Assembly (NCBI GenBank): GCA_030390025.1
Contig: CM059432.1
Location: 21,764,001-21,828,000, forward strand
Source of the DNA: Squalus acanthias
Lineage: Eukaryota
Length of the DNA: 64,000 bases
Direction: 5' to 3'
The position numbers and the translations under genes were made by a program. Below are positions 3,405 through 61,249 of the stretch, in pieces (position 1 is the stretch's first letter; each line of letters opens with the position of its first letter). A model generated the notes under the pieces. That model had not been told where the DNA came from. It did no database searches and saw only the letters and a program-made list of their open reading frames with translations.

Positions 3405-3533
3405 AAGGAAAAAATTAGCAGGGCTACGGGGAAAAGGCAGGGGAGTGGGATTTGCTGAAATGCTCTTGCAGAGAGCCTGCATAGGCTCGACGGGCCGAAT
3501 GGCCTCCTTCTGTGCTGTAACCATTCTATGATT
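3405..3533 (+). mobile_element. CR1 3' tail fragment
   Basis: gggctacggggaaaaggcagg..gggccgaatggcctccttctgtgctgtaaccattctatga. The rest of the ttctatga microsatellite resumes at 5863-5885. Confidence 0.8.
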
Positions 3534-5862
3534 ATAGAATCATAGAATCATAGAATGGTTACAGCACGGTAGGAGGCCATTCGGCCTGTCGAGCCCGTGC
3601 CAGCTCTCTGCAAGAGCACTTCAGCTAGTCCCACTCCCCCGCCTTTTCCCTGTAGCCCTGCAAATTTTTTACCTTCAGTTACTTATCTAATTCCCTTTTG
3701 AAAGCCATGATTGAATCTGCCTCCACCACCCTTTCAGGCAGTGCATTCCAGATCCTAACCACTCGCTGCGTAAAATAGTTTTTCCTCATGTTGCCTTTGG
3801 TTCTTCTGCCAATCACCTTAAATTTGTGTCCTTTGGTTCTCAACCCTTCCGCCATTGGGAACAGTTTCTCTCTATCTACTCTGTCTAGACCCCTCATGAT
3901 TTTGAACACCTCTATCAAATCTCCTCTCAATCTTCTCTGCTCTAAGGCGAACAACCCCAGCCTCTCCAGTGTTTTATAACGATTCATCATAACTTCCTTG
4001 CTTTTGTACTCTATGCCTCTATTTATAAAGCTCAGGATCCCGTATGCTTTTTTAAATGTTTTCTCAACCTGTCCTGCCACCTTCAATGATTTGTACACAT
4101 ATACCCCCAGGTCTCTCTGTTCCTGCACCCCTTTTAGAATTGTATCCTTTAGTTTATATTGCCTCTCCTCGTTCTTCCTACCAAAATGTATCACTTCACA
4201 CTTTTCTGCGTTAAACTTTATCTGCTACGTGTCTGCCCATTCCACCAACCTGTCTATGTCCTCTTGAAATCTATCCCTGTCCTCCTCACTGTTCACTATA
4301 CTTACAAGTTTTGTGTAATCTGCAAATTTTGAAATTGTGCCTTGTACACCTAACTCCAAATCATTAGTATATATCAAGAAAAGCAGTGGTCCTAGTACCG
4401 ACCCCTGGGGAACACCACTGTATACCTTCCTCATGTCCGAAAAACTACCGTTCACCACTACTCTCTGTTTCCTGTCATTTAGCCAACTTTGTATCCATGC
4501 TGCCACTGTCCCTTTTATTCCATGGGCTTCAACTTTGCTGGGAAGCCTATTATGTGGCACTTTATCACACACCTTTTGGAAGTCCATGTACACCCCATCA
4601 ACTGCATTGCCCTCATCAACCCTCTCTGTTACCTCATCAAAAAATTCGATCAAGTTCGTTAAACACGATTTGCCTTTAACAAATCTGAGCTGGCTTCCCT
4701 TAATTAATCCACACTTGTCCAAGTGACTGTTAATTTTGTCCCGGATTATCCTTTCTAAAAGCTTCACCACTACCGAGGTTAAACTGACTGGCCTGTAATT
4801 GCTGGGTTTATCCTTACACTCTTTTTTGAACAAGGGTGTAACATCTGCAATTCTCCAGTCCTCTGGCACCACCTCCGTATCTAAGGAGCATTGGAAGATT
4901 ATGGCCAGTACCTCCGCAATTTCCACCTTTACTTCCCTCAGCATCCTAGGATGCATCCCATCCGGTCCTGATGACTTATCTACTTTAAGTCCAGCCAGCC
5001 TTTCTAGTACCTCCTCTTTATCAATTTTTATCCCATCCAATATCTCAACTACCTCCTCTTTCACTATGACTTTGGCAGCATCTTCTTCCTTGGTAAAGAC
5101 AGATGCAAAGTATTCATTTAGTATCTCAGCCATGCCCTCTGCCTCCATGTGTAAGTCTCCTATTTGGTCCCTAATCGGCCCCTCCTCTTACTACCTATTT
5201 ACTAGTTATATGCCTATAGAATACTTTTGGATTCCTTTTTACGTTAGCTGCCAATCTATTCTCATATTTCCTCTTCACCCCTTTTATTTCCTTTTTTACT
5301 TCCCTTCTGAACTTTCTGTATTCAGCCTGGTTCTCACTTGTATTCTCAACCTGACATCTGTCATACTCCCATTTTTTCTGCTTTATCTTACTCACTATCT
5401 CTTTCGTCATCCAGGGAGCTCTGGCTTTGGTTGCCCTACCTTTCTCCTGAGTGGGAATGTACCCCGACTGTATCAGAACCATCTCCTCTTTAAAGGCAGA
5501 CCATTGTTCAATTACATTTTTGGCTGCCAATCTTTGATTCCAATTTACCTGGACCAGGTCCATTCTCAACCCACTGAAATTGGCTCTAGATTGCTCTTTG
5601 TCCTTTTCCATAGTTGACCCAAAAACCTTATGATACTATGATTACTGTTCCCTAAATGTTGCGCTACTGAAACTTGATCCACCTGTCCCACCTCATTCTC
5701 CAGAACCAGATCCTGCAATGCCTCCTTCGTCGTTGGGCCGGAACGTACTGATCAATAAAGTTCTCTTGAATACACTTCAGAAATTCTTCCCCCTCTCTGC
5801 CCTTTACACTATTACTATCCCAGTCTATATTAGGATAATTGAAGTCCCCCATTATCACGACT
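3534..5862 (-). mobile_element. 5'-truncated CR1 LINE with frameshifted ORF2 (end of endonuclease plus RT)
   Basis: ORF pieces 5664-5858 (GDFNYPNIDW), 5195-5611, 4225-5148 (NYRPVSLTS, PQGSVLGP, FADY) and 3679-4194; (CATAGAAT)n tail at 3534-3555. Confidence 0.95.
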
Positions 5863-6416
5863 ATGTTTCTATGATTCTATGATTATGGGGCAATCTGACA
5901 GAAGGGGGTAAAAATTCAGTTGGTTGCGCCTCCCGTTAGCGCCTTAAATGGGCGCTAATGGGGCGTTAAGGCGCTAACGCCCGGGCGCAGCGCTGTTTGC
6001 GCCGCTCGAGAACTTAACTTGAGATTGTGCGGCGGCGCTAAAACTTACCGCTGCGACCACCTGCGCGCGCAGATTGTGACGTCATTCCATGGTGCAACGC
6101 CCTTGGGGCGCCCCGGAGCGGAAATTGAGTGGCGCCCCCTGCCTTACCGCCTGGCGCTTCCAACGACCGGAAGACTGGAACGTTATCAATCGGTGTGGGG
6201 CTGGGGGGGGCGCTATTTAAAGGGGGCCTCTTCCTGTCTTTTTCTGTGGTCGACATTTATGCACCACTCGTTCTGAGAGAGAGAGAGAGATTCGGAGAGA
6301 GAGAGAGAGAGACTTCTACATTGACTCAACGCTTTGTGAGGTAGTTTTGCCTAGTTCATCCTAACTTTGCTGCTACTTTCGTTGCTGTACCTCATTACTT
6401 TTCTGGCAAAGAGAAT

Positions 6417-7577
6417 ATGGGGGCGTCAATGATTGGGGGCGTCGTCCTGCTCCAGCTCAATCGGAGGAGAGTGAGACGCAGACAGAGAGTGGCAATGATG
6501 GCCAGACGGAGGAGGGCCATCAGGCGCATGTACAGGAGAGCTTACCCTCCCAGGGTATATCGTGAACAGCTCTCCTACATCCACATGTCCGAGGAGCTGT
6601 GTTTGCGAAGGCTGCGATTCAGCAAGGAGGTGGTCACTGAGCTCTGCCACCTGCTGCAGCCAGATCTGCAGCCTCAGCTGAGGTCCAGGACGTCTCTGTC
6701 GGTGGCAGTGAAGGTCACAGTGGCTTTGAACTTCTACGCCACTGGCTCATTCCAAGCTGCTGTTGGGGACCTCGCCAATATCTCCCAGTTTGCGGTGCAT
6801 CGCTGCATCCGGCAGGTCACCAATGCCCTCTTCACAAGGAGACGAGACTTCATCTCCTTCCCTATGACCCCAGACAAGCAGCATGACCGTGCTATGGGCT
6901 TTGCGAGGGTAGCGGGCTTCCCCATGGTGCAGGGCGCCATTGACTGCACGCATGTGGCTTTGCGTGCTCCGCGAGAGAATGCAGAGGAGTTCCGGAACAG
7001 AAAGGGGTTCCATTCCTTGAATGTGCAGTTGGTCTGTGACCACAGACAGGTGATTCTCGCTGTCAATGCCCACTATCCGGGCAGCTGCCACGATGCTTTC
7101 ATCCTGCGCCAGAGTACTGTGGCAGAAATTTTCGAGGCACCGCATCAGCCAGTTGGTTGGCTTCTGGGGGACAAGGGGTACGCATTGAGCACCTGGCTGA
7201 TGACACCGCTCCGTGCGCCAAACACCCCTGCTGAGCTGCGGTACCAGGAAAGCCAACAAGCAACGAGGAACATTATTGAGCGCACAATCGGCGTGCTCAA
7301 ACAACGATTCCGCTGTCTGGACCATTCCGGAGGAGCCCTGCAGTACTCGCCTGAGCAAGTTTCCAAATTCGTAGTGGTGTGCTGCATGTTGCACAACATG
7401 GCAATCCTCAGGACGCAGCCAATGCCACCAGGCCTTGCAGCACCACAAGAGGAGGAGGAGGAAGAGGAGGAACAGGCCGAGGACGATGATCAGCAGCAGC
7501 ACCAAGGCAGGAGGGCGGCCCACAATGGTCAAACTGCAAGGGCCGTCCGTCAACGACTAATAGCAAGCCGCTTCTAG
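6417..7577 (+). CDS. Harbinger DDE transposase (HARBI1-family nuclease), 386 aa
   Basis: Uninterrupted ORF with LRFSKE, GAIDCTH, NRKGFHSLNVQLVCD, PGSCHDAFIL, LLGDKGY, IERTIGVLKQRF, CCMLHN and an acidic tail. All three catalytic residues are present. Confidence 0.95.
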   Translation: MGASMIGGVVLLQLNRRRVRRRQRVAMMARRRRAIRRMYRRAYPPRVYREQLSYIHMSEELCLRRLRFSKEVVTELCHLLQPDLQPQLRSRTSLSVAVKVTVALNFYATGSFQAAVGDLANISQFAVHRCIRQVTNALFTRRRDFISFPMTPDKQHDRAMGFARVAGFPMVQGAIDCTHVALRAPRENAEEFRNRKGFHSLNVQLVCDHRQVILAVNAHYPGSCHDAFILRQSTVAEIFEAPHQPVGWLLGDKGYALSTWLMTPLRAPNTPAELRYQESQQATRNIIERTIGVLKQRFRCLDHSGGALQYSPEQVSKFVVVCCMLHNMAILRTQPMPPGLAAPQEEEEEEEEQAEDDDQQQHQGRRAAHNGQTARAVRQRLIASRF

Positions 7578-7871: not shown

Positions 7872-9892
7872 CTACTTTTTGCCCTTCGAGGGTGATCTCC
7901 TTCCCTTGCGCACTTCCCCCCTTCTAACCCTACTGCTCCTCCGTAATGGGACCTCAGTGGCTGCAGCAAGGCTGGTGGAAGGCTGCTGCTTGTCAGACCC
8001 TGACACTGCAGATGCCCCTGAAGGACGGCCTCGACCACTTCTGGGCCTGGAGGGCCCGGCTGCAGACTGCACCAACTCTGCATGGGCGGCAGCAGTCTGT
8101 CCTACAGGCGGTGGCAAGTGCAGTGGAGAAGTGACAGTGTTGGCAGCAGGAATGCTGTCATCGTGAGAGAGGACAGCAACTCCCTGCTCGACCGACACAC
8201 TGGCACTCCCACGGGGCAGCACTTCAGCATCCGGAGCAATTTGCCGGAGAACAGATTGCTGGCCTGCTGCGGCGCGGTGACAGCCCCGGGGACATGTGCA
8301 CGAACCATCGAGGATGGCAGCAGTCAGTGCTCGCGTGGCCTCAATCTGAGTCTGCATGAGAGCAGTCTCAGATGGGTTCCTGGCAGCCAGTGACTGAATT
8401 GCAGCAGTAAGCTTTAGTGTGGCATCCGCCTGTGCTACAGCGAAGTGCTCCACACTCCTTGCCAGTGCCTCAATGCATTCGGGCACCCTTCCCACTGCAC
8501 CCATGAGCTCAGTGTGCATGCCCACCGCCTGGCTGTTCATTTCTGCAATCAGCCGCTCCTCCTCTGCGTCCATTGCATTAGGAGTGTCTGGCATACTCTC
8601 CCTCTGGGGAGAAGGCTCCCGTTCTTCCCTCCCCCCCCCCCCATGGCGTTGCTGCAGCCCGCTGGGTCCTGGAACTTCACCATCATCAGCCCCTTCCCCC
8701 CTGCTCCCCCGTTCTTCCCTCCCCCCCCAATGACGTTGCTGCAGCCCGCTGGGTCCTGGAACTTCACCATCATCAGCCCCTTCCCCCCTGCTCCCCTCCG
8801 GGGAAGGCGTGTTCCCAGTGTGGCCATGGGCTTCCTCGGGAGAGGGTGGCACTGATGCTCCGGCTTCCTCTTCCTCCTCAGCTGCAGCATCACTCCCAGT
8901 GGCAGCTTCAGGGACCATCTCCTCAGCTGGTGAATCACCATCTGAAAGCAGGGAGGTACAAGAGTGGCTTTAGCGTGAGGACAGGGTGGCAGTAAGGGAG
9001 GAATAAGTGCAGCGAGTTAGCAAGTTGGATTGAAAGTGTCAAAGGCTGGTATTGTGAGGGACAAGTGGAAGGACAGAGGACAAAAAGGTGATGACCTTAC
9101 CATTGCTGTCCACAACGGGGTCGGCGTCTCCAGTGGCGACGGGACCGATCACCCGGCTTGCCACAATCCTGTGGACGCGCTCCTCCAGATCGCTGAGGGG
9201 TTGCAGCTGAAGCCGCCCTCCACCCGTCCGTTGCTGCTGTCTCCGATTATGAGCCAGCTTAGCCTGCAAGAAAAAGGACAGCATCTGAGTCAATATACAG
9301 CCATGGTCTTGCCTGATGTGCCTCCCATAGGTGAATAGCCCTTACAATATGCAGCCATGGTCTTGCCTGATGTGCCTCCCATAGGTGAATAGCCCTTACA
9401 ATATGCAGCCATGGTCTTGCCTGATGTGCCTCCCATAGGTGAATAGCCCTTACTGTATGCAGCCATGGTCTTGCCTGATGTGCCTCCCATAGGTGAATAG
9501 CCCTTACTGTATGCAAAGTGTGGAATGTGTGTGTGTGTTTGATGAAAGGGCCATAGGTGTTGCATGAGTGTTGTGCATTGGGGTTTTAAGACCCTCTGGC
9601 CATAGAGTGAGGTTGAGATGGAGGGATGGAGAGGTATTGAGAAAAAGCCACTCACCCTGACGACCCGAGTGAGGTCGTTGAACTTTTGGCGGCACTGGAC
9701 ATGGGTCCTGGGCACCATGCTCCTGGAGGAGACGCTCTGAGCCACCTCCCTCCACACTCTTCTGAACTCGCGTGGCAAAGGCCTCCTGCCACTCTCCGGG
9801 AACAGCATGCATCGTCTGCGCTCCACTGCGTCAACCAGAGCATCCAAGGCCCGCTCGGTGAAGCGATGAGCGCGTTCTCTCACCCTCTCCAT
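7872..9892 (-). CDS. Harbinger Myb/SANT-like DNA-binding protein; exons 9892-9656, 9263-9101 and 8941-7872; 489 aa
   Basis: Exon 1 RFTERALDALVDAV..W.EVA..V....R...QCRQKFNDL; exon 2 AKLAHNRRQQQRTGGG. Donors GTGAGT and GTAAGG; acceptors TTCTTGCAG and CTTTCAG. 237+163+1070 = 1470 nt, in frame with ORF 7872-8918. Confidence 0.85.
8620..8800. repeat. 87-bp tandem duplication in exon 3 of the Myb/SANT gene
   Basis: GCTGCAGCCC recurs at 8651 and 8738; the peptide GSRGEGADDGEVPGPSGLQQRH..GREER occurs twice and the frame is preserved. Confidence 0.9.
9295..9513. repeat. 54-bp minisatellite, 4 copies, in intron 1 of the Myb/SANT gene
   Basis: Unit GCAGCCATGGTCTTGCCTGATGTGCCTCCCATAGGTGAATAGCCCTTAC(AA/TG)TAT, head-to-tail with no spacers. 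Confidence 0.97.
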
Positions 9893-10296
9893 GCTTGGCA
9901 GCAAAATGGATTACAGGTCTCTCCAGGCTGAGATTCAAGGCTGCAATGAGCAGGGTGTGGCTGGGGAGCAAGTGGCCCCCCCCGCTTTAAGAAGTGTCCG
10001 GCGCCAGTGTGTCTGTGTTCCCTCGCTAACTGGCAGCAGCTGCGCTGCGCTCGTGCGCTGAGGTAGCGCCTCACTCCTAGGCCTTTGCGCCTTAAGAGAG
10101 GTGTGCAGCGCCTAATTTAGCGCTCCACTCACCTCCCGGGGCGGTAAAAGTGAAGTTTCCAGTCAGTGCCGATAATTAGCGCCAGGCGCTAATATTTGCG
10201 TCCAGATGATATTTGCGCCCCAAATGGGGCGCGACCTAATTTCTACCCCAAGGTGTTTAAAGTTATAAAAAAGTGGCACAGGGTAGATGAAAGCAA

Positions 10297-10827
10297 AGGC
10301 AAAATATTGCGGATGCTGGAAATCTCCTTTATATTGGGGAGACCAAACGCAGATTGGATGATCACTTAGTGGAACGCCTCCGTTCAGTCCGCCAGCGTGA
10401 CCCTGAGCTTCCGGTCGCTTGCTATTTTAATTCTCCATCCCACTCTCAATTTGACTTCTCTGTCCTCGGCCTTCCTCACTGTTCTAATGAAGTTCAACAG
10501 AAGCTCGAGGAACAGCACCTCATCTTTCGACTAAGCACTTTACAGCTTTACGGACTCAACATGGAGTTCAACAATTTCAGATCATAACTACTACCCCCAT
10601 TTTTTTGGACAGCAGGTGCTGGTAATGAATCAGCTGTTCACTTAATCTCTCTTGCCTTCCACCCTATCACAGTCCTTCCCTTTTGTTCTTTCCTCCCCTC
10701 CCCGCTTTCACTGCACCTGTACTTGCTTAAAACCTGTTACATATGTAACATTTTCCAGTCCTGACGATAGGTCACTGGCCTGAAATGTTAACTCTGTTTC
10801 TCTCTCAACAGATGCTGCCTGGCCTGT
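10297..10827 (+). mobile_element. Penelope-like element fragment: GIY-YIG endonuclease C-terminus plus pseudo-LTR, with a short inverted pLTR piece at the left end
   Basis: LYIGETKRRLDDH..PVACYFN..EQHLIFRLSTLQLYGLN at 10328-10587; degenerate hammerhead core at 10761-10789; 13-bp TSD TAGAT(G/A)AAAGCAA at 10284-10296 and 10828-10840. Confidence 0.88.
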
Positions 10828-11136
10828 TAGATAAAAGCAATCTGTTTCCAGTAGTTGTGGATTCAAGAAAGAGGGGGGCCATGGATACAAAATTAACTGT
10901 AAGAGATTTAGAGCAGAGGGCAGCAGAAACTTCCTTAAACAGAGGCTACAGAATTCACTTCCAGGGTTAGTGGTTGAGGATGAAACTATGTTAACAATCA
11001 AGATGAGATTGGTTAAGATGGATGAAGGAAAAGGGGTTGAGGGATATGGGAATATGGTGGGTAAACGTGATTAGAACTATTTACTCGCATGGAGGGTAAA
11101 CGCTGACATGGACTGGTTGGGTCGAATGGCTTGTTT

Positions 11137-14575: not shown

Positions 14576-14756
14576 TTTTAAAAAATTGAATCTAAATAGC
14601 ACAGTTCCATTTGAGTCTGTCTAAATCCTGCCAATAAACCGAATACCTATAAGATTAGTACAATAGCAAAATATTGCGGATGCTGGAAATCTGAAATAAC
14701 AACAGAAAATGCTGGAAACACTCAGCAGGCCAGGCAGCATCCGTGGAGAGAGAAAC

Positions 14757-14797
14757 AGAGTTAACGTTTCAGATCTGGGACCTTTCATCAGAACTGG
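14757..14797 (-). ncRNA. Minimal type I hammerhead ribozyme motif (PLE-associated)
   Basis: Minus strand: AGTT CTGATGA A AGGTC CCA GATCT GAAA CGTT AACT. Core boxes, stem II, a 4-bp stem I and palindromic AACGTT in place of stem III. Confidence 0.7.
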
Positions 14798-14945
14798 AAA
14801 AAGCTGGAGATGTAACAGAGTTTAAGCAGGGAGGGGGGGTGGTGGTGGGTGGGAGGGGAGGAAGGAACTGAAGGAACATTCTGTGCTAAGGTAGGAGGCA
14901 GGAAAGATAAAATGTTGCAAATGGGGATGGCAAAATCATACAGCC

Positions 14946-35641: not shown

Positions 35642-38164
35642 ATAGATACATAGATACATAGAAGATAGGAGCAGGAGTAGGCCATCCGGCCCTTCGAGTC
35701 TGCTCCGCCATTTAATGAGATCATGGCTGATCCTCCAATTCAGTATCCCGTCCCCGCCTTCTCTCCGTAACCCTTAACCCCTTTTGCCTGTAGAAATATA
35801 TCTAATTCCTTCTTAAATATATTTAATGAGCTGGCGTACACTGCCCTCTGTGGCAATGAGTTCCACAGGTTCACCACCCTCTGAGTGAAGAAATTCCCCC
35901 TCATTTCTGTCCTAAATGGTTTAGCCCTTATCCTTAAATTTTGTCCTCTAGTTCTGTTCTCACCCGCCAAGGGAAACATTCCTTCTGCATCTAGTCTGTC
36001 TAGACCTGTCAGAATTTTATACACTTCTATGAGGTCCCCTCTCAATCTTCTAAACTCCAGTGTGTACATCCCTAAACTACATAGTCTCTCCTCATAGGTC
36101 AATCCCGCCATTCCTGGTATCAGCCTGGTGAATCGCCGCTGCACCCCCTCCATGGCAAGAACATCTTTCCTCAGATGAGGCGACCAAAACTGTACACAGT
36201 ACTCGAGGTGTGGTCTCACCAGTGCCCTGTACAGCTGCAGCAAGGTATCCCTGTTCCTGTATTCCAACCCTTTTGCTATGAAGGCCAGCATACCGTTTGC
36301 CTTCTTGACCGCCTGTTGCACCTGCATGCACGCCTTCAGTGACTGGTGTACAAGAACACCCAGGTCTCTCTGTACTTCCCCCTCTCCCAATTTATTGCCA
36401 TTTAAATAATAATTTGCCCTCCCGTTCCTGCACCCAAGGTGGATAACTTCACACTTGTCCACATTATAGTGCATCTGCCATTTATCCGCCCAATCACCCA
36501 GTCTGTCCAAATCGCTCTGGAGCTTCCTGGTCTCCTCCTCTGAGCCCACCCCCCCTCCTAGTTTAGTGTCGTCTGCAAATTTGGAAATGTTGCATCCGAC
36601 TCCCTGATCCAGGTCATTAATGTAAATTGTGAACAGCTGGGGACCCAGGACAGATCCCTGTGGTACCCCACTTGTTACTGCCTGCCATTCGGAAAATGAG
36701 CCGTTTATTCCAACTCTTTGTTTTCTATCTGACAGCCAGTTCTCTATCCACGTCAATACTTTCCCCTTTATCCCATGAGCTTCAATTTTCCATGCTAATC
36801 TTTTATGTGGGACCTTATCGAAGGCCTTTTGGAAGTCCAGGTACACCACATCTACTGGCTCTCCCCCATCTATTTTACCAGTTACTCCCTCAAAAAATTC
36901 CAATAGATTAGTCAAGCACGATTTACCCTTTGTAAATCCATGTTGACTCTGTCCTATCCTGTCCCCATTTGCTAAGTGCTCCGCTATTTCATCCTTAATG
37001 ATGGACTCCAGCATTTTGCCCACAACTGATGTAAGGCTTACAGGTCTGTAATTACCTGCTTTTTCCCTACCCCCCTTTTTGAATAGTGGGGTAACGTTAG
37101 CTACCCTCCAATCCATGGGCACTGTTCCCGAGTCTAATGAATTCTGAAAAATCATACTTAGTGCATCCGCTATCTCTAGGGCCACCTCCTTCAGTACCCT
37201 AGGATGCATGTTATCAGGCCCTGGGGATTTGTCCGCCTTCAATCCCTTTAGCTTCCTTAACACCATATCCTTAGAGATATTGATTTGCGTCAGTTCCTCC
37301 TTTGCCAATGTCCCTATTTTTCCCGATATCCCAGGGAGGTTTTTTGTGTCTTCCTTCGTAAAGACTGACCCAAAGTATGCATTTAGTTGGTCTGCCATTT
37401 CCTTATTTCCCGTTATATATTCCCCCGTATCTGACTGCAATGGGCCAACTTTGGTTTTCACCAGTCTTTTCCTCTTGATATACTTATAAAAGCTTTTGGA
37501 GTTAGTTTTTATATTTTCCGCCAGCTTGCTTTCGTAAGCTATTTTGCCCCTCTTGATTAAGCCCTTTGTCCTCCTTTGCTCTATCTTAAACTGTTCCCAA
37601 TCTTCCGCTCTGGCACTTTTTTTGGCTATTTTATACGCCCTATCTTTGGATTTTATGCTGTCTCTAATTTCCCCTGTTATCCACGGTTGAGTCACCTTTT
37701 TAGATTTCCTTTTATGCCAGATTGGTATAAGCAATTTTTGCAACTTTGTCATTCTATCTTTAAATGCTTGCCATTGTTTATCTACCTCCAGTCCTCCCAG
37801 GAACGTTGTCCAATCAGACCTACTCAGTTCCCGTCTAATGGCATCATAATTCCCCTTGTTTAAATTCAGGACCTTAGTCTCTGAGTCAATTTCTTCGCTC
37901 TCCATTTCGAGTGAGAAATCGATCATGTTATGATCGCTCTGACCCAAGGGTCCCCGTACAACAAGATTACTAATTAGTCCCTTCTCATTGCACAGTACCC
38001 AGTCCAATATAGCCTGTTCCCGAGTTGGTTCCTCGACATATTGATCCAGATAACCATCCCTTAAACACTCAAGGAATTCCTCCTCCTCATTATTTTTACT
38101 GATTAGGCTAGTCCAATCTATATGTAAGTTAAAGTCACCTATGATGACAGCTGTGCTCTTATTG
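35642..38164 (-). mobile_element. Young 5'-truncated CR1 LINE inserted in the Harbinger derivative
   Basis: (CATAGATA)n tail, CACTC duplicated at 35637-35641 and 38165-38169, uninterrupted ORF2. Confidence 0.95.
35740..38163 (-). CDS. CR1 ORF2 partial (end of AP endonuclease plus complete RT), open but lacking its start
   Basis: 755-aa ORF with NYRPVSLTS, QHGF, LDFQKAFDKV, PQGSVLGP and FADD. The frame stays open upstream through VIIGDFNLHIDW to the truncation point. Confidence 0.9.
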   Translation of the reverse strand, partial: NKSTAVIIGDFNLHIDWTSLISKNNEEEEFLECLRDGYLDQYVEEPTREQAILDWVLCNEKGLISNLVVRGPLGQSDHNMIDFSLEMESEEIDSETKVLNLNKGNYDAIRRELSRSDWTTFLGGLEVDKQWQAFKDRMTKLQKLLIPIWHKRKSKKVTQPWITGEIRDSIKSKDRAYKIAKKSARAEDWEQFKIEQRRTKGLIKRGKIAYESKLAENIKTNSKSFYKYIKRKRLVKTKVGPLQSDTGEYITGNKEMADQLNAYFGSVFTKEDTKNLPGISGKIGTLAKEELTQINISKDMVLRKLKGLKADKSPGPDNMHPRVLKEVALEIADALSMIFQNSLDSGTVPMDWRVANVTPLFKKGGREKAGNYRPVSLTSVVGKMLESIIKDEIAEHLANGDRIGQSQHGFTKGKSCLTNLLEFFEGVTGKIDGGEPVDVVYLDFQKAFDKVPHKRLAWKIEAHGIKGKVLTWIENWLSDRKQRVGINGSFSEWQAVTSGVPQGSVLGPQLFTIYINDLDQGVGCNISKFADDTKLGGGVGSEEETRKLQSDLDRLGDWADKWQMHYNVDKCEVIHLGCRNGRANYYLNGNKLGEGEVQRDLGVLVHQSLKACMQVQQAVKKANGMLAFIAKGLEYRNRDTLLQLYRALVRPHLEYCVQFWSPHLRKDVLAMEGVQRRFTRLIPGMAGLTYEERLCSLGMYTLEFRRLRGDLIEVYKILTGLDRLDAEGMFPLAGENRTRGQNLRIRAKPFRTEMRGNFFTQRVVNLWNSLPQRAVYASSLNIFKKELDIFLQAKGVKGYGEKAGTGY

Positions 38165-39451
38165 CACTCCTTGGCCTTTGCGCCTTAAGACAGGTGTGCA
38201 GCGCCTGATTTAGCGCTCCACTCACCTCCCGGGGCGGTAAAAGTGAAGTTTCCAGTCAGTGCCGATAATTAGCGCCAGGCGCTAATATTTGCGTCCAGAC
38301 GATATTTGCGCCCCAAATGGGGCGCGACCTAATTTTTCCCCCTTTAACTTTCATATAGATTGGGATAAGCAGACTAGATCATGTCAGAAAGGTAGTCAAT
38401 TTCTTGTGTGTGTTCAGGATAGTTTTCGGCAACAATTGGACACATCGGGAGCGGGGTGGGGGCTGGGGGGTGGGCGGTGGGCTGCGGTAGACCCGCACGC
38501 TGTATTTAAAGTGTCAACACGCCTCCTGGGAGCGGGTTGGCTGCCGCCCCGCCTCTGTTAAAAGCAGAAGTGGGCGGGTTGGAAGTGGGTTGAGGACAGG
38601 ATTCAGATTTTTAACACTTTAACCTCCCACCCGACCCAAACCCGCCCATTTTTTGGGGTTAAAATTCCCCCCAACATGTCCTGGAACTAACATATTAGAC
38701 TTAGTAATGAGCAAAGAGCCACATTTAATTAACAGCCTAACGAGGCGTGAATATTTATCTAATGGCAATCATAATATGTTCGAGTTCAATGTAGTGTTTG
38801 AAAGGGAGAAACACGAAACAGCTACTAAGATTCTAGATTTAGGTAAGGCTGGCTTCAACATGATGAGACAGAATTTCCCCGTCTATTCCCGGTATTGAAT
38901 CAGGGACGGGGACGCACCAAAATGAATGTGTGAATAAGGGGCCGATCACATGTTGTGGACCCTTTTGGAAGTTTGTCTCCGACACCTGCCCTGCTCTGGA
39001 ATCTTTAGTGACCCCAACCGCCACCAACCAAAGGTAGGTTATGAAAAAGTTTTTTTTAAACGTTGCTGAGGAGCCATTTTGAGAAAGGTTGCGAAGATTG
39101 AGAAAAAACCAGGCAGCCCACCAAACCGCCCTAGTCAGGTCATGTACAATTTGCCCAATAATGAACTATACCCAAGCCACACAGTCTTTTGAAGAAGACA
39201 ATCATTCACAGGTCAAACCTTCAAGAAGATATTCAATTTTAGGCATCTTTTCATAAATAGTACTGTTAATATGCAATTTTATTCGCCAGTAAAATTAAAG
39301 GAATAGACAAACCCTCCCCCGCCTCTCATAGACACAAATCTCTCTTGTATCTATAGATAGAAAACAAGAAAAAAGCTTGTCATCTGATAGGTGAGCTTCT
39401 CTCACTTCCAGTTTCCAACTTGTTTCTCTGTTCAGCTGTGATCAGTGATCA

Positions 39452-56440: not shown

Positions 56441-58817
56441 GAAGTCCCAAGAGGCCTTCAGCAGCAGCAATGGCTGCTATGGTTGGAACTATCTGCAGCA
56501 GCTACAAGGTCCCCAGTGGATCCCTCCAAATGGACACCATGATGGTGAAACTACAGGAAAATGGGGCAGAAAGGTAGGAACATCCCCTCTGCCTCATTTA
56601 CATAGAAATATGGTGCATACACTTATTGTAGGTGTAGAGACACGGTCCCTTTTCATGGGAAGTCCCAGAAATCCTACATAATGGAGGTGGAGGCTTAGCA
56701 TTACAGATCTTCACCCCGATTTCCTGTCATTAGCACCAGGGAGTTAACATTACCTGGTTGCTACCGACAGGACAATCGTCCCTGTAGTCTGGGCGAGTGA
56801 GGGAGCAGCACAGGTCCTAAACTCTCCATGGATAGATGAAGTGTAGAAGCTTTCTGCATGAGATAGGTGTGAAGAGGCTTATTTTGTTTAACACTCCAGA
56901 GCATCTTCCCAAGAGGATGGCAGCATAATGTGCCTGGTAGGCCAAGGATAGTTCTGTGTGAAGTACTCGCAGGGTTTACCCAAAGTCCCTTTACAAGCAG
57001 CCAAGGTGGAACAAGAGTACCACATATCAGATAGATGACTCAATTATACATACATAGGAACAGGAGTAGGCCATTCAGCCTCTTGAGCCTCTTCCACCAT
57101 TCAATTAGAACTAAATCATGGCTGATCTGTAGCTCAACTGCATTTACCTGCCCTTGTTTCATATTCCTTGATACCCTTACCCAACAAAAATCTATCGATC
57201 TCAGTCTTGAAAATTTCAATTCACCCACCGTACACCGTAGGGAGCGAGTTCCAAATTTCCACATAGCACAAAGTGCTGCCAGTCCACCTGCTACACATCT
57301 ATTTCTGGCCCATGCAAGATTCTCAGACAACCTTCCAGCTCTTTCATTGCTAAAATGTCAGTTGGTAGCACTATCACCCAACGCCATTAAAACAGAGTAA
57401 CTGTTGTTCATCTCATTGCTGTTTGTGAGTTCTTACTTTGTGCAATTGGCTATTGCATTTACTTATTTAACAACAGTAACTGCACATCAAAAGTAAATTC
57501 TGTGAAACACTTTCTCACAGATATTGTAAGGTGCTTTTTCTTTTACTTTCTTTTACTGTGCAAAGCCGAGCAGGGCACACATTCAAGCTGTAACCTGTCA
57601 GCAAAATGACCTGAGAATTGCCTTGCATGTGCTCTCAAAATGGAGTCCGTAATCAGACTGAATGGTGGGAAACCAAAAGGCTAAGTCCAATTCAACCTTT
57701 GAACATTCATGCGAAACAAGGCATCATCACAGAAACATAGGCCATCAAGACCACAGACCCAGAGATTGCTCAGCAGGAGTGTGTCACTCCTTATTGGAAG
57801 GAGATAAGAAGAACTGTTCGTGAAGAAGAGATTGAAAGTCAAGGGGGTGAAATTTCCACCTGGTATGTCTGTGTACTGATGAATTGTTAAACCGAGACCA
57901 TTAGGGGTACTCACACGGTTGTGTGAGGTGTTTGGCAACAAGAAGAAATGAACACTTCTAACGCGTGTCGCTTAATTTAGTCAACTGAATTGTGGAGGTT
58001 TCTTTGAAAATCAAGGATGTATAAGATGGTGTATTGACATTAAGAATAAGTTCAAAAAGATAAATTCCATTGAGTTCAGTTCTGGGTTTTAAGTTCTTTT
58101 TAGTTCTCATTGCTTTAGTAGTCTTTTTGTCTAGTTTATTTAGAAGGGTGTCTCTGTAAAAGGAAAAAAGTACATCTCTGACAGAGACAGAGAGAGAGAA
58201 GTTACAGAATTAAAATTGTATTGCTATACTGGCCAAAAACAGGCAGATATAAATGTTTCACTTAGTTTTCCTGAGATCAAGGAATGTGAGATTTAAGGCA
58301 ACTGGTCTGGATATGCTTACTATCATGTAAGGTGGATTTACCCAGGAGCAGTGGATTCAAGAGGAAAGGATAGCACTTCTACAGGCAGAGGTTTATCTTC
58401 TTAACATTCTCGAAGGTCAACATCATCATCCCAAAGAAAAGCGAGATAATCAGCACAGCCACGCAGCTCCTCAGGACGAGATCATGTAAATTCTGTAAAC
58501 ATTGCTAACTGCAAGATAGTCTTTAATCTATTCAATAGATTGGTTGTCTAATGCTGTTAACTTGTCAGCTATCTAAGGAGTTTAATCCTAAATTAATTTC
58601 ACCAATTTATATCAACCTCAGATATTTATCTTTACTGTAAATTGATAATCAGCAAACCAGTTAATGCTGAATTCCTGTGATACAATTGAACTGCCTATAC
58701 AGCCTCTGTTATTCCTTTTTTTAGTTAAGCTTGTTTATGAATTATCTGCATACTCAATGTTTAAGTTTGAGTGCTGCTAATTATTATTTTGAAGTTAATA
58801 AACAATTGTTAGTGCAT

Positions 58818-59039
58818 AAGCAAAATACTGCGGATGCTGGAAATCTGAAATATCAACAGAAAATGCTGGAAATACTCAGCAGGTCAGGCAGCATCTGTGG
58901 AGAGAGAAACAGAGTTATCGTTTCAGGTCGATGACCCTTCATCAGAACGTCTGACGAAGGGTCATTGACCTGAAACGTTAACTCTGTTTCTCTCTCCACA
59001 GATGCTGCCTGACCTGCTGAGTATTTTCAGCATTTCCTG
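58818..59039. mobile_element. Palindromic Penelope pLTR insert (family 1) with 15-bp TSD
   Basis: CAATTGTTAGTGCAT at 58803-58817 and 59040-59054; ~89-bp inverted arms meeting at 58947-58950; a hammerhead core in each arm. Confidence 0.88.
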
Positions 59040-59786
59040 CAATTGTTAGTGCATGACTTGTTACGGACATACAAAAATGGAGGTCAGGAAAAGACCAGAT
59101 TGGGCTATTACAAACAGTCAACAGCTTGTGCGTATCCTAATTGGAAATTGGTAGTGCAAATATAAATACAAACTGGACTGGTTTATGTAAGACAGTTTGG
59201 TGAGTTAAATTTAGGCATCATTTAGGCACAGACTGGATGGTAAACCCCAGATGGTTTCTTGACGAGGAATTACGGTAAAGGGGTTAAGGATTCATCTGAT
59301 ACCTAGATAAATATTTGTCAGGGAACCGATCTCAGTGTTATTACAGATTTATAACTGAAACTCTAGGCACAATAATTCCTTAAAAGGCCTTCACACTACA
59401 AATCATTCTAACACAATCAACTTGCATGGTCAGTCACTGACACACAGAATGGGCTGCAAGATGGTGACTACGTACTCCTTGAAGGTCCAGTATCTCAAGA
59501 CTGTTTCTTTGCCTCACTATCACAAGAAAAAAAAATGTACAAAACTGGAGGAGGAGCCAGAAATTAAAAACCTTTTGACCATTTGACTCTTTTGAGGAGC
59601 TTACTCTGGTGATCCTTGCCGATAAGAACATCAAACAAGTTGGAGAAGGTGAAACCACAGTCCTCCCCAAGCTCAGAATATGTGTCTTCTTGCTCTTGTT
59701 ATGTGTTGTACCCCTTCTCATTCACTGAGATATACAGACATCACACAAACACTCAATATTTCACAATGCAAACTCTATTTGAAGGT

Positions 59787-60070
59787 CATGATGCGGAGAT
59801 GCCGGTGTTGGACTGGGGTGGACAAAAATGAGAAGTCGCACAACACCAGGTTATAGTCCAACAGTTTTATTTAAAATTACGAGCTTTCGGAGCTGCTGCC
59901 CCTTCGTCAGGTAGAGGTACAGTGAGGGAATCTAATATCAGATTAGATATTAGATTTAGATCTAATATTAGATTCCCTCACTGTACCTCTACCTGACGAA
60001 GGGGCAGCAGCTCCGAAAGCTCGTAATTTTAAATAAAACTGTTGGACTATAACCTGGTGTTGTGCGACTT
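59787..60070. mobile_element. Palindromic PLE-type pLTR insert (family 2) with 14-bp TSD
   Basis: CTCTATTTGAAGGT at 59773-59786 and 60071-60084; perfect arms 59830-59938 and 59965-60073; a hammerhead core in each arm. Confidence 0.88.
59990..60025 (+). ncRNA. Minimal type I hammerhead ribozyme motif (mirror copy on the minus strand at ~59878-59913)
   Basis: TAC CTGACGA A GGGGC AGCA GCTCC GAAA GC TC GTA: core boxes, 5-bp stem II, 3-bp stem I, palindromic AGCT, predicted cleavage after C60022. Confidence 0.72.
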
Positions 60071-61249
60071 CTCTATTTGAAGGTGTATCTTGAAGCAGCA
60101 TTTAACCCTTGTTCCATTTCTGTTATTGTAAAGCTGGAAGAGTAGTCTGCAGCTCTGCCAGTGACCCACAACAAGACAGCACCTCACAGCACCCTGCAAC
60201 CCTCTCACCATTGTTTACAAGCACCTGCACAGCAGCACGCATTCGAAAGGAAGCAGTTGGTGAGTCTGAGGATGGAACACTGTGTGGGCCACAGTGCGCA
60301 GGGAAAGAGAAGCAAGTGGTGGTGCTAGAGGAGAAGCAGGAACCAGATGTCATCAGTGACCACTTGTTACTGGTGTATTGCAGCTGCGCAGTGAAATTGG
60401 GCCGTTGTGTTATGTTGCTGTGGCTATTTCATCACATTGTGCCTGTGCAAGCTCCACACTGGAGCGATTCACTCTGATCCCTTTCCCCTGCTTTTTCACC
60501 TTCACAATATTTTTCTCCCCAAGTCTTCATCTAATTCCTTCATAAATGTTGTGTTTCAATAACCACTTACTGGCCCTTTGTGTAAAAAACATTTCATCTG
60601 ACCTCCCTCTTTATGATTCCCAAAGTTTCTACCTACTTGGAACAGATTCACCTACCATTAGAAATAACCTTTCACCATTTACCATCTAAAACCCTTTCAT
60701 GTTTCTAAAATACTTCTGTTAGATCTCTCCACAACCTTCTTTGATCCAGTTAATACTGCCCTGGGGCAAAATTGTCTATTGAAGCTACATGCGGGGATCA
60801 CAGTGGGTAGCTTATTAGAAAATTGTAAGTGCATGTCTGTTATTTTTCTTCTACTGAAATCAATGGGCAGAAAATGCTCATTGAGTGGGAAGCTCTGCAG
60901 GTGGTGTAGGCCTCGGGAAATTTTGCAGGCCCACTCTCAGAAGGGCTTGATGCCAAACACAAGAGAATATCTAATGTAGAACCTGGAATGCAGAAATTTG
61001 AATCCGGAACCTTTTCCATGACTTTCACCTCAGTAAAGATAAAACGCTATCCATGCAAGTACAGTATTTAAGAGTCTCCATCAATATTAGGGGATGAGGA
61101 ATCGAGAAAAAATGCTTGTTACCACAGCAAGCACAATAAACGAGAAAGGGAATATTGAGGCAAATACGCTTAGTGATGCAATCTAGCAAGAATAAAGAGG
61201 CAGCTGGATAGAAAACTGTGGTGATGTTACCTGGCCCTTTAAGCAACAG

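Follow-up and report, generated by a model that had tools for sequence, protein, structure and literature searches.

An asymmetric palindrome with paired hammerhead motifs as a probable stub of a Penelope-like element

Layout of the insertion and its hammerhead motifs

The window analysed here, a stretch of 64 kb of DNA, holds at 59773-60084 an insert built in the order target-site duplication (TSD), tail, arm, spacer, arm and TSD, and hence asymmetric. An exact repeat search places two inverted arms of 109 nt with 0 mismatches at 59830-59938 (minus strand) and 59965-60073 (plus strand), with a spacer of 26 nt (59939-59964) between them. The arms are bounded by an exact 14-nt direct repeat, the TSD copies 59773-59786 and 60071-60084, the first 3 nt of the right copy doubling as the end of the right arm (60071-60073). 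A 14-nt repeat at both ends was found in 0 of 20,000 random 300-nt intervals of the window, the palindrome locus being skipped. An earlier note on this DNA had reported perfect arms of about 109 bp, a 14-bp TSD and a 26-nt spacer, all of which the repeat search confirms. It had overlooked, however, a 43-nt segment (59787-59829, minus strand) that separates the left arm from the left TSD and belongs to the left copy only, so that its picture of a symmetric hairpin unit does not hold. The runner-up among the perfect inverted repeats of the window (loops below 60 nt) measures 22 nt and lies, with a 12-nt loop, at about 3512-3567.

The 43-nt segment is the tail typical of Penelope-like elements (PLEs). 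Insertions of PLEs are described with an inverted 5'-truncated copy and a tail of 30-40 bp at one end (PMC8557442), and with a TSD, a tail on one of the inverted pLTRs and palindromes at the inverted junction (PMC3846280). The insert shows an inverted 5'-truncated copy adjoining the main copy, a TSD and, at one end only, a tail of 43 nt against the usual 30-40 nt; it is the published layout reduced to its ends, and a tidy example of an arrangement in print since at least 2013-2014. In this regard, the earlier statement that PLEs form inverted pLTR arrangements and carry minimal hammerheads agrees with PMC3846280 and PMC4209133. Pen2a_Av of Adineta vaga (PMC3846280) and the insertions described in PMC8557442 have the same inverted truncated copy, one-end tail, TSD and junction palindromes; unlike them, the palindrome has copies cut to 109 nt, with no ORF, a common inner end and a 26-nt insert. 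The A. vaga examples given in PMC3846280 have TSDs of 8-10 nt, whereas the TSD here measures 14 nt and the tail 43 nt. The left arm would represent the 3' end of the element's terminal repeat. A stem-loop in the tail was not significant against shuffles (z = -1.8; 9 of 200 as stable).

The spacer consists of arm-end pieces of 3-8 nt. It can be tiled with five pieces of the 20 arm-terminal bases, and a tiling with at most five pieces occurred in 0 of 20,000 shuffled spacers, which bears out the earlier description of reiterated arm-end fragments. A parse into steps of 3-9 nt with a priming match of 0-4 nt, two steps having no match, likewise supports the proposal that iterative template switching is recorded in the spacer. 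Together with the end of the left arm, the spacer forms an 11-bp DNA hairpin (59929-59956); palindromes lie at 59956 (10 nt) and 59960 (14 nt), and a 10-mer is common to 59965 and 59947 in one orientation. For polymerase theta, overlapping templated inserts drawn from a single flank are reported in 16 of 17 complex cases (PMC5068794), as is switching between cis and trans templates (PMC4912351). By pattern match, the spacer resembles the reiterated priming described for this polymerase, since both kinds of insert appear short, overlapping and copied from no more than 10 nt away from an end (PMC5068794, PMC4912351); the enzyme that wrote it cannot be read off one locus.

Each arm bears a candidate minimal type I hammerhead motif, at 59878-59913 on the minus strand, with a predicted cut after 59881, and at 59990-60025 on the plus strand, with C60022 as the predicted cleavage base and 59881 as its mirror. 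Of the three matches to a hammerhead descriptor in the 64-kb window, two fall on these arms and the third at 14791, against a mean of 0.07 matches in 30 shuffled windows and none at all once a palindromic stem III was required. Stem I measures 3 bp and stem II, which follows an extra base, 5 bp; stem III is replaced by a palindrome of 4 nt. In common with the minimal hammerheads (min-HHR) of PLEs described in PMC4209133, the motif has the conserved core, a nucleotide between 9 and 10.1, the G10.1-C11.1 pair, a palindromic 15.2-16.2 region in place of stem III and a short stem I; the S. mansoni min-HHR, however, has a stem I of 4-5 bp and a stem II of 7-8 bp (PMC4209133), against 3 and 5 bp here. 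The claim of an intact hammerhead on each arm is thus right for the core, but not for a stem I of 3 bp and a stem III absent save for its 4-nt palindrome. An AATAAA beyond each core had also been pointed out and is located at 60032-60037 (plus strand), with its mirror at 59866-59871 (minus strand), as a signal predicted from the letters themselves. Among the family variants listed (40 of 53), one changes a G.U to an A-U pair in stem II (59900), one falls in loop II (59896) and one is a C/U variant at position 17 (59881). A scan of the 64-kb window with Rfam gave 0 matches at the gathering score, and the 30 weak matches by E-value were to miRNA and other hairpin models, by pairing alone, with no hammerhead among them.

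As RNA, the insert is predicted to fold into a hairpin of -213 kcal/mol, in which the pairing probability of stem II falls to 2e-23, versus 0.32 in a single arm; the folding thus favours the suggestion that the full hairpin would mask the ribozyme. Minimal hammerheads are thought to act as dimers, and a lone motif gave no cleavage (PMC4209133). Any one transcript of the insert contains a single sense hammerhead and, therefore, an intramolecular dimer cannot form. The proposal of a protein-free ribozyme-hairpin unit is at odds with an asymmetric insert that offers one sense hammerhead per transcript. According to PMC4209133, metazoan PLEs include hammerhead pairs placed on opposite strands, 100-700 bp apart, mostly from truncated elements, and in vitro the hammerhead was dispensable for insertion by an Anolis PLE (PMC11167929). 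In the mechanism proposed below, the hammerheads would ride as passengers in the insertion.

The insertion site and its repeat family in public contigs

Of the public sequencing runs, five contain 0.78 of the words of 59060-61200, and the others at most 0.20; the five stem from a single organism, represented by two samples, one of which may have been the source of the assembly. Contigs of four runs were aligned to 59060-59988. The left junction is present in one contig of each of the two samples, which comprises flank, TSD and 21 nt of tail, below the 31-nt bar set for bridging, with 2 other letters in each contig. In two relatives, a long contig matches until 59786, the last base of the TSD, and is then unlike the assembly for more than 1500 nt; 24 of 545 and 27 of 540 letters of these contigs differ from the assembly. 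The word shares of the two relatives, 0.19 and 0.18, compare with 0.21 and 0.17 expected with both flanks and 0.07-0.08 with the left flank alone. The insertion site is therefore likely to be empty in both relatives as judged from their contigs, which would make the insertion younger than a split of about 4-5%.

In line with this notion, 0 mismatches in 109 nt have a probability of 0.67-0.75 at the 0.3-0.4% difference between sample and assembly, and of 0.004-0.007 at the age of the split from the relatives. Perfect arms are thus ordinary at within-species distance, and point to a young insertion with no need for gene conversion; of the two explanations offered earlier, very young or gene-converted, the former stands and the latter becomes superfluous. 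Positions 59959-59988 are covered by no contig of the four runs, and 59897-59988 by none in the two relatives. The centre of the palindrome and its right junction rest on the assembly alone, and the coverage gap proves nothing either way: it neither refutes the centre nor weighs against mobility of the palindrome as a unit. Two bases of the flank, 59327 and 59690, differ from the assembly in the contigs of both samples; it seems that either the insertion lies on more than one haplotype or these are putative assembly errors.

The summed depth over tail and arm reaches 0.3-7.5 million, versus 9-34 at the flank 59494-59617. A depth about five orders above that of the flank shows that the family is very abundant, though it gives no copy number. 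Among the loose ends listed (24 of 685), all four runs have family ends at 59787/59788 whose flanks are unlike (agreement 0.37-0.43), and the contigs ending there number 74, 57 + 69, 26 + 33 and 25 + 29 per run. A looser second cluster of ends falls at 59815-59831 (5, 28, 33 and 21 + 24 contigs per run) and is blurred by family variants near 59826-59831; further ends in the same list lie at 59778 and 59795. The same three final letters appear in all four rows of ends at 59787, and they would carry the element past a terminal ATG, perhaps an ORF start. Four distinct go-back joints, such as a partial tandem (pLTR) arrangement would give, are listed, two restarting at 59789 and one at 59826.

The opposite-strand joints listed, 59848/59885 and 59859/59904, have other centres and the depth of a single locus (4-21), and from the loose ends at 59934 and 59937 other copies of the family continue into different AT-rich sequence and not into this spacer. 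The idea that such units re-mobilise thus finds no support, as the inverted joints listed have other centres and the family ends at the tail in varied flanks. A full element of the palindrome family was not seen in the contigs of the four runs. Metagenome contigs and genome contigs, scanned by pattern, contained no match, which is what one would expect of a vertebrate repeat. Run X5 includes 23 contigs whose match takes in 9 nt of the target upstream of the tail (59778-59787) before they diverge, which may hint at a target-sequence preference.

A second family and other features of the window

A repeat search with blastn identified at 58803-59054 an insertion of a second PLE family with the same layout: a 15-nt TSD, a 39-nt tail (58818-58856), arms of 90 nt with 5 mismatches (58857-58946 and 58950-59039), a 3-nt centre and degenerate hammerheads. 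In both arms the sequence stops at the hammerhead's 5' edge, the two end points differing by no more than 2 nt, and neither arm passes the hammerhead descriptor. The gap between this neighbour and the palindrome is 718 nt, and blastn gave no match between the two. An equivalent structure of unrelated sequence had been placed about 750 bp away; its anatomy, the 718-nt gap and the lack of a blastn match agree with that description, but the hammerheads of the neighbour do not. We do not regard the clustering of the two palindromes as remarkable, since three insertions of the second family in 64 kb give a chance of about 1 in 10 for one within 1 kb. The bin 58-60 kb is the most AT-rich of the window (GC 0.38).

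Another insertion of the second family, at 10284-10840, consists of a 33-nt inverted tail piece and a 500-nt main piece between TSD copies of 13 nt with 1 mismatch; its two pieces do not overlap, and a decayed hammerhead is present. The copy at 10326-10826 holds an open frame of 88 aa (10321-10584) that matches 10 of 91 candidate proteins, the best being a skate protein (E 6e-28). A Pfam scan of the 88-aa piece alone gave no match; among its homologues, a weak GIY-YIG match, below the Pfam cut-off and lying at the matched part or just ahead of it, was found in 2 of the 4 scanned. These protein matches tie the second family to what is predicted to be a PLE/GIY-YIG-type ORF end at 10321-10584, and make a cartilaginous fish the likely host. 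For the palindrome family, tblastn with 10 proteins gave no ORF link, the endonuclease part being matched only at 10.3 kb, in the second family. In a further copy, at 14660-14914 (minus strand), the hammerhead at 14791 passes the descriptor, and no inversion and no convincing TSD were found.

About 50 nt to the right of the insert lies an exon-like stretch, 60134-60259, with AG before, GT after and one open frame. The open frames 60130-60477 and 57747-57887 had no Pfam match, and the former no Atlas match. Elsewhere in the window, a 410-aa open frame (6345-7577, plus strand) and two opposite-strand frames (7872-9910, minus strand) are present, which resemble a Harbinger-type transposase and its partner gene. 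In addition, an uninterrupted 814-aa LINE frame bearing a reverse transcriptase (RT) occupies 35740-38184 (minus strand) and matches the RT part of P0001.

Origin of the palindrome

The palindrome is, in all probability, a one-off PLE stub. We consider it somewhat better than an even chance that a single dead-end PLE insertion took place in which both cut target strands were primed and the resulting cDNAs joined; granted a one-off stub, two primings are moderately favoured over a snap-back of one cDNA. According to this model, the RT-endonuclease of the element would cut the two target strands 14 nt apart. The top-strand end would prime a cDNA at the tail end of the RNA, likely represented by the left arm, and the bottom-strand end would prime about 43 nt further in, aided by a 3-nt match to the target, the tail-less right arm being likely this second cDNA or else a snap-back copy. 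Both cDNAs would halt at one point, namely where a short or broken template reaches its 5' end, beside an AT-rich self-complementary tract. Joining of their identical 3' ends would then take several rounds in which an end is primed on 0-4 matching bases, extended briefly and released again, in steps as described for polymerase theta; these rounds would leave the spacer, and gap filling would yield the palindrome and its TSD.

The non-overlapping inversion with a 13-nt TSD at 10284-10840 makes it likely that two primings do occur for PLEs in this genome. In L1 twin priming an inversion arises by a second priming, and the two pieces do not overlap; the palindrome may share this origin, but its pieces duplicate one 109-nt stretch. 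An Anolis PLE protein was shown in vitro to cut and extend both strands, with RT starting at two sites, one at either limit of the tail (PMC11167929). The palindrome is comparable to this element, Poseidon PAc of Anolis carolinensis, in its two putative RT starts and in its AT-rich target; cutting and extension of both target strands, as observed in vitro for PAc (PMC11167929), would be shared as well.

Against two primings, the shared inner end of the arms, at an identical base in the palindrome and within 2 nt in the neighbour, fits a snap-back at least as simply. A single cDNA, with its start at the tail end, would snap back at its 3' end, two abortive copies would make the spacer and the arm would then be copied, an account that we regard as possible but rather doubtful; the accompanying joining of the second target strand via the 3-nt microhomology, which would still leave a one-off PLE stub, is as tentative. 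Identical arms with a common inner end are a direct consequence of a snap-back, with no need for extra assumptions; the 11-bp hairpin at the centre and the palindromes nested there also argue for it. Moreover, snap-back of cDNA is a documented class of 5' junction for R2 proteins (PMC11371274), and the junction palindromes of PLEs were interpreted as self-priming (PMC3846280). A snap-back does not explain, however, why the copy lacks its last 40 nt or so in both palindromes (43 nt here and 39 nt in the neighbour). The tail-less end coincides with a cluster of family ends and with the expected second RT start (PMC11167929), the neighbour has no microhomology at the corresponding junction, and the inversion at 10.3 kb, whose pieces do not overlap, could not arise by snap-back alone. 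An improbable variant concerns the spacer: the telomerase-related RT of the element would have slipped and recopied the last 5-10 template bases, as in repeat addition. The centre of the bottom strand consists mostly of direct repeats of the cDNA end with a realignment match of 1-3 nt, and PLE RTs share a common ancestor with telomerase RTs (PMC8557442), both of which speak for such reiteration; yet one inverted piece remains needed, a top-strand parse as DNA-templated inserts fits this one locus equally, and 16 of 17 complex cases reported in PMC5068794 have overlapping inserts taken from a single flank.

The single locus matters little, and provides one data point on how inverted junctions of PLEs form. 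Tandem and inverted PLE structures are named as still unexplained in PMC8557442, and among the papers listed by a literature search none dealt with reiterated inserts at inverted PLE junctions or with re-mobilised palindromic PLE units. In so abundant a family, statistics over many junctions could tell two primings apart from snap-back and, likewise, host polymerase theta from RT reiteration. If the latter were true, many young stubs would form a natural record of how insertion ends in the closest retroelement relatives of telomerase.

Readings other than a one-off stub fare worse. Nothing here supports a self-mobilising ribozyme hairpin, which would be an element of a new kind: that the palindrome is a non-autonomous ribozyme unit copied whole is very improbable, even though a transcript of its minus strand would have the tail at its end, and pLTR sequences by themselves can be mobilised in trans (PMC3846280). 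The 64-kb window holds no second copy, the opposite-strand joints listed have other centres, the ends at 59934 and 59937 lead elsewhere, the RNA is predicted to be the -213 kcal/mol hairpin, and the tandem sense hammerheads that retrozymes need (10.64898/2026.07.22.740005) are lacking. An assembly or library fold-back artefact is barely credible, even with centre and right junction resting on the assembly, since a fold-back chimera would mirror the flank and would be expected to show no TSD, no one-sided tail and no continuing right flank; moreover, the left junction recurs in contigs of two samples, and the contigs of the relatives break exactly at the TSD.

Two established classes of element were also considered. 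Miniature inverted-repeat transposable elements (MITEs) and other non-autonomous DNA transposons have terminal inverted repeats beside the TSD and many copies with the same interior. This identity was rejected, as 43 nt separate the TSD from the start of the left arm and the other joints listed have other centres. Non-LTR retrozymes, as described in 10.64898/2026.07.22.740005, resemble the palindrome in being non-coding, PLE-related and furnished with a type I hammerhead; they need, however, at least two tandem direct units with hammerheads, and the pair found here is inverted.
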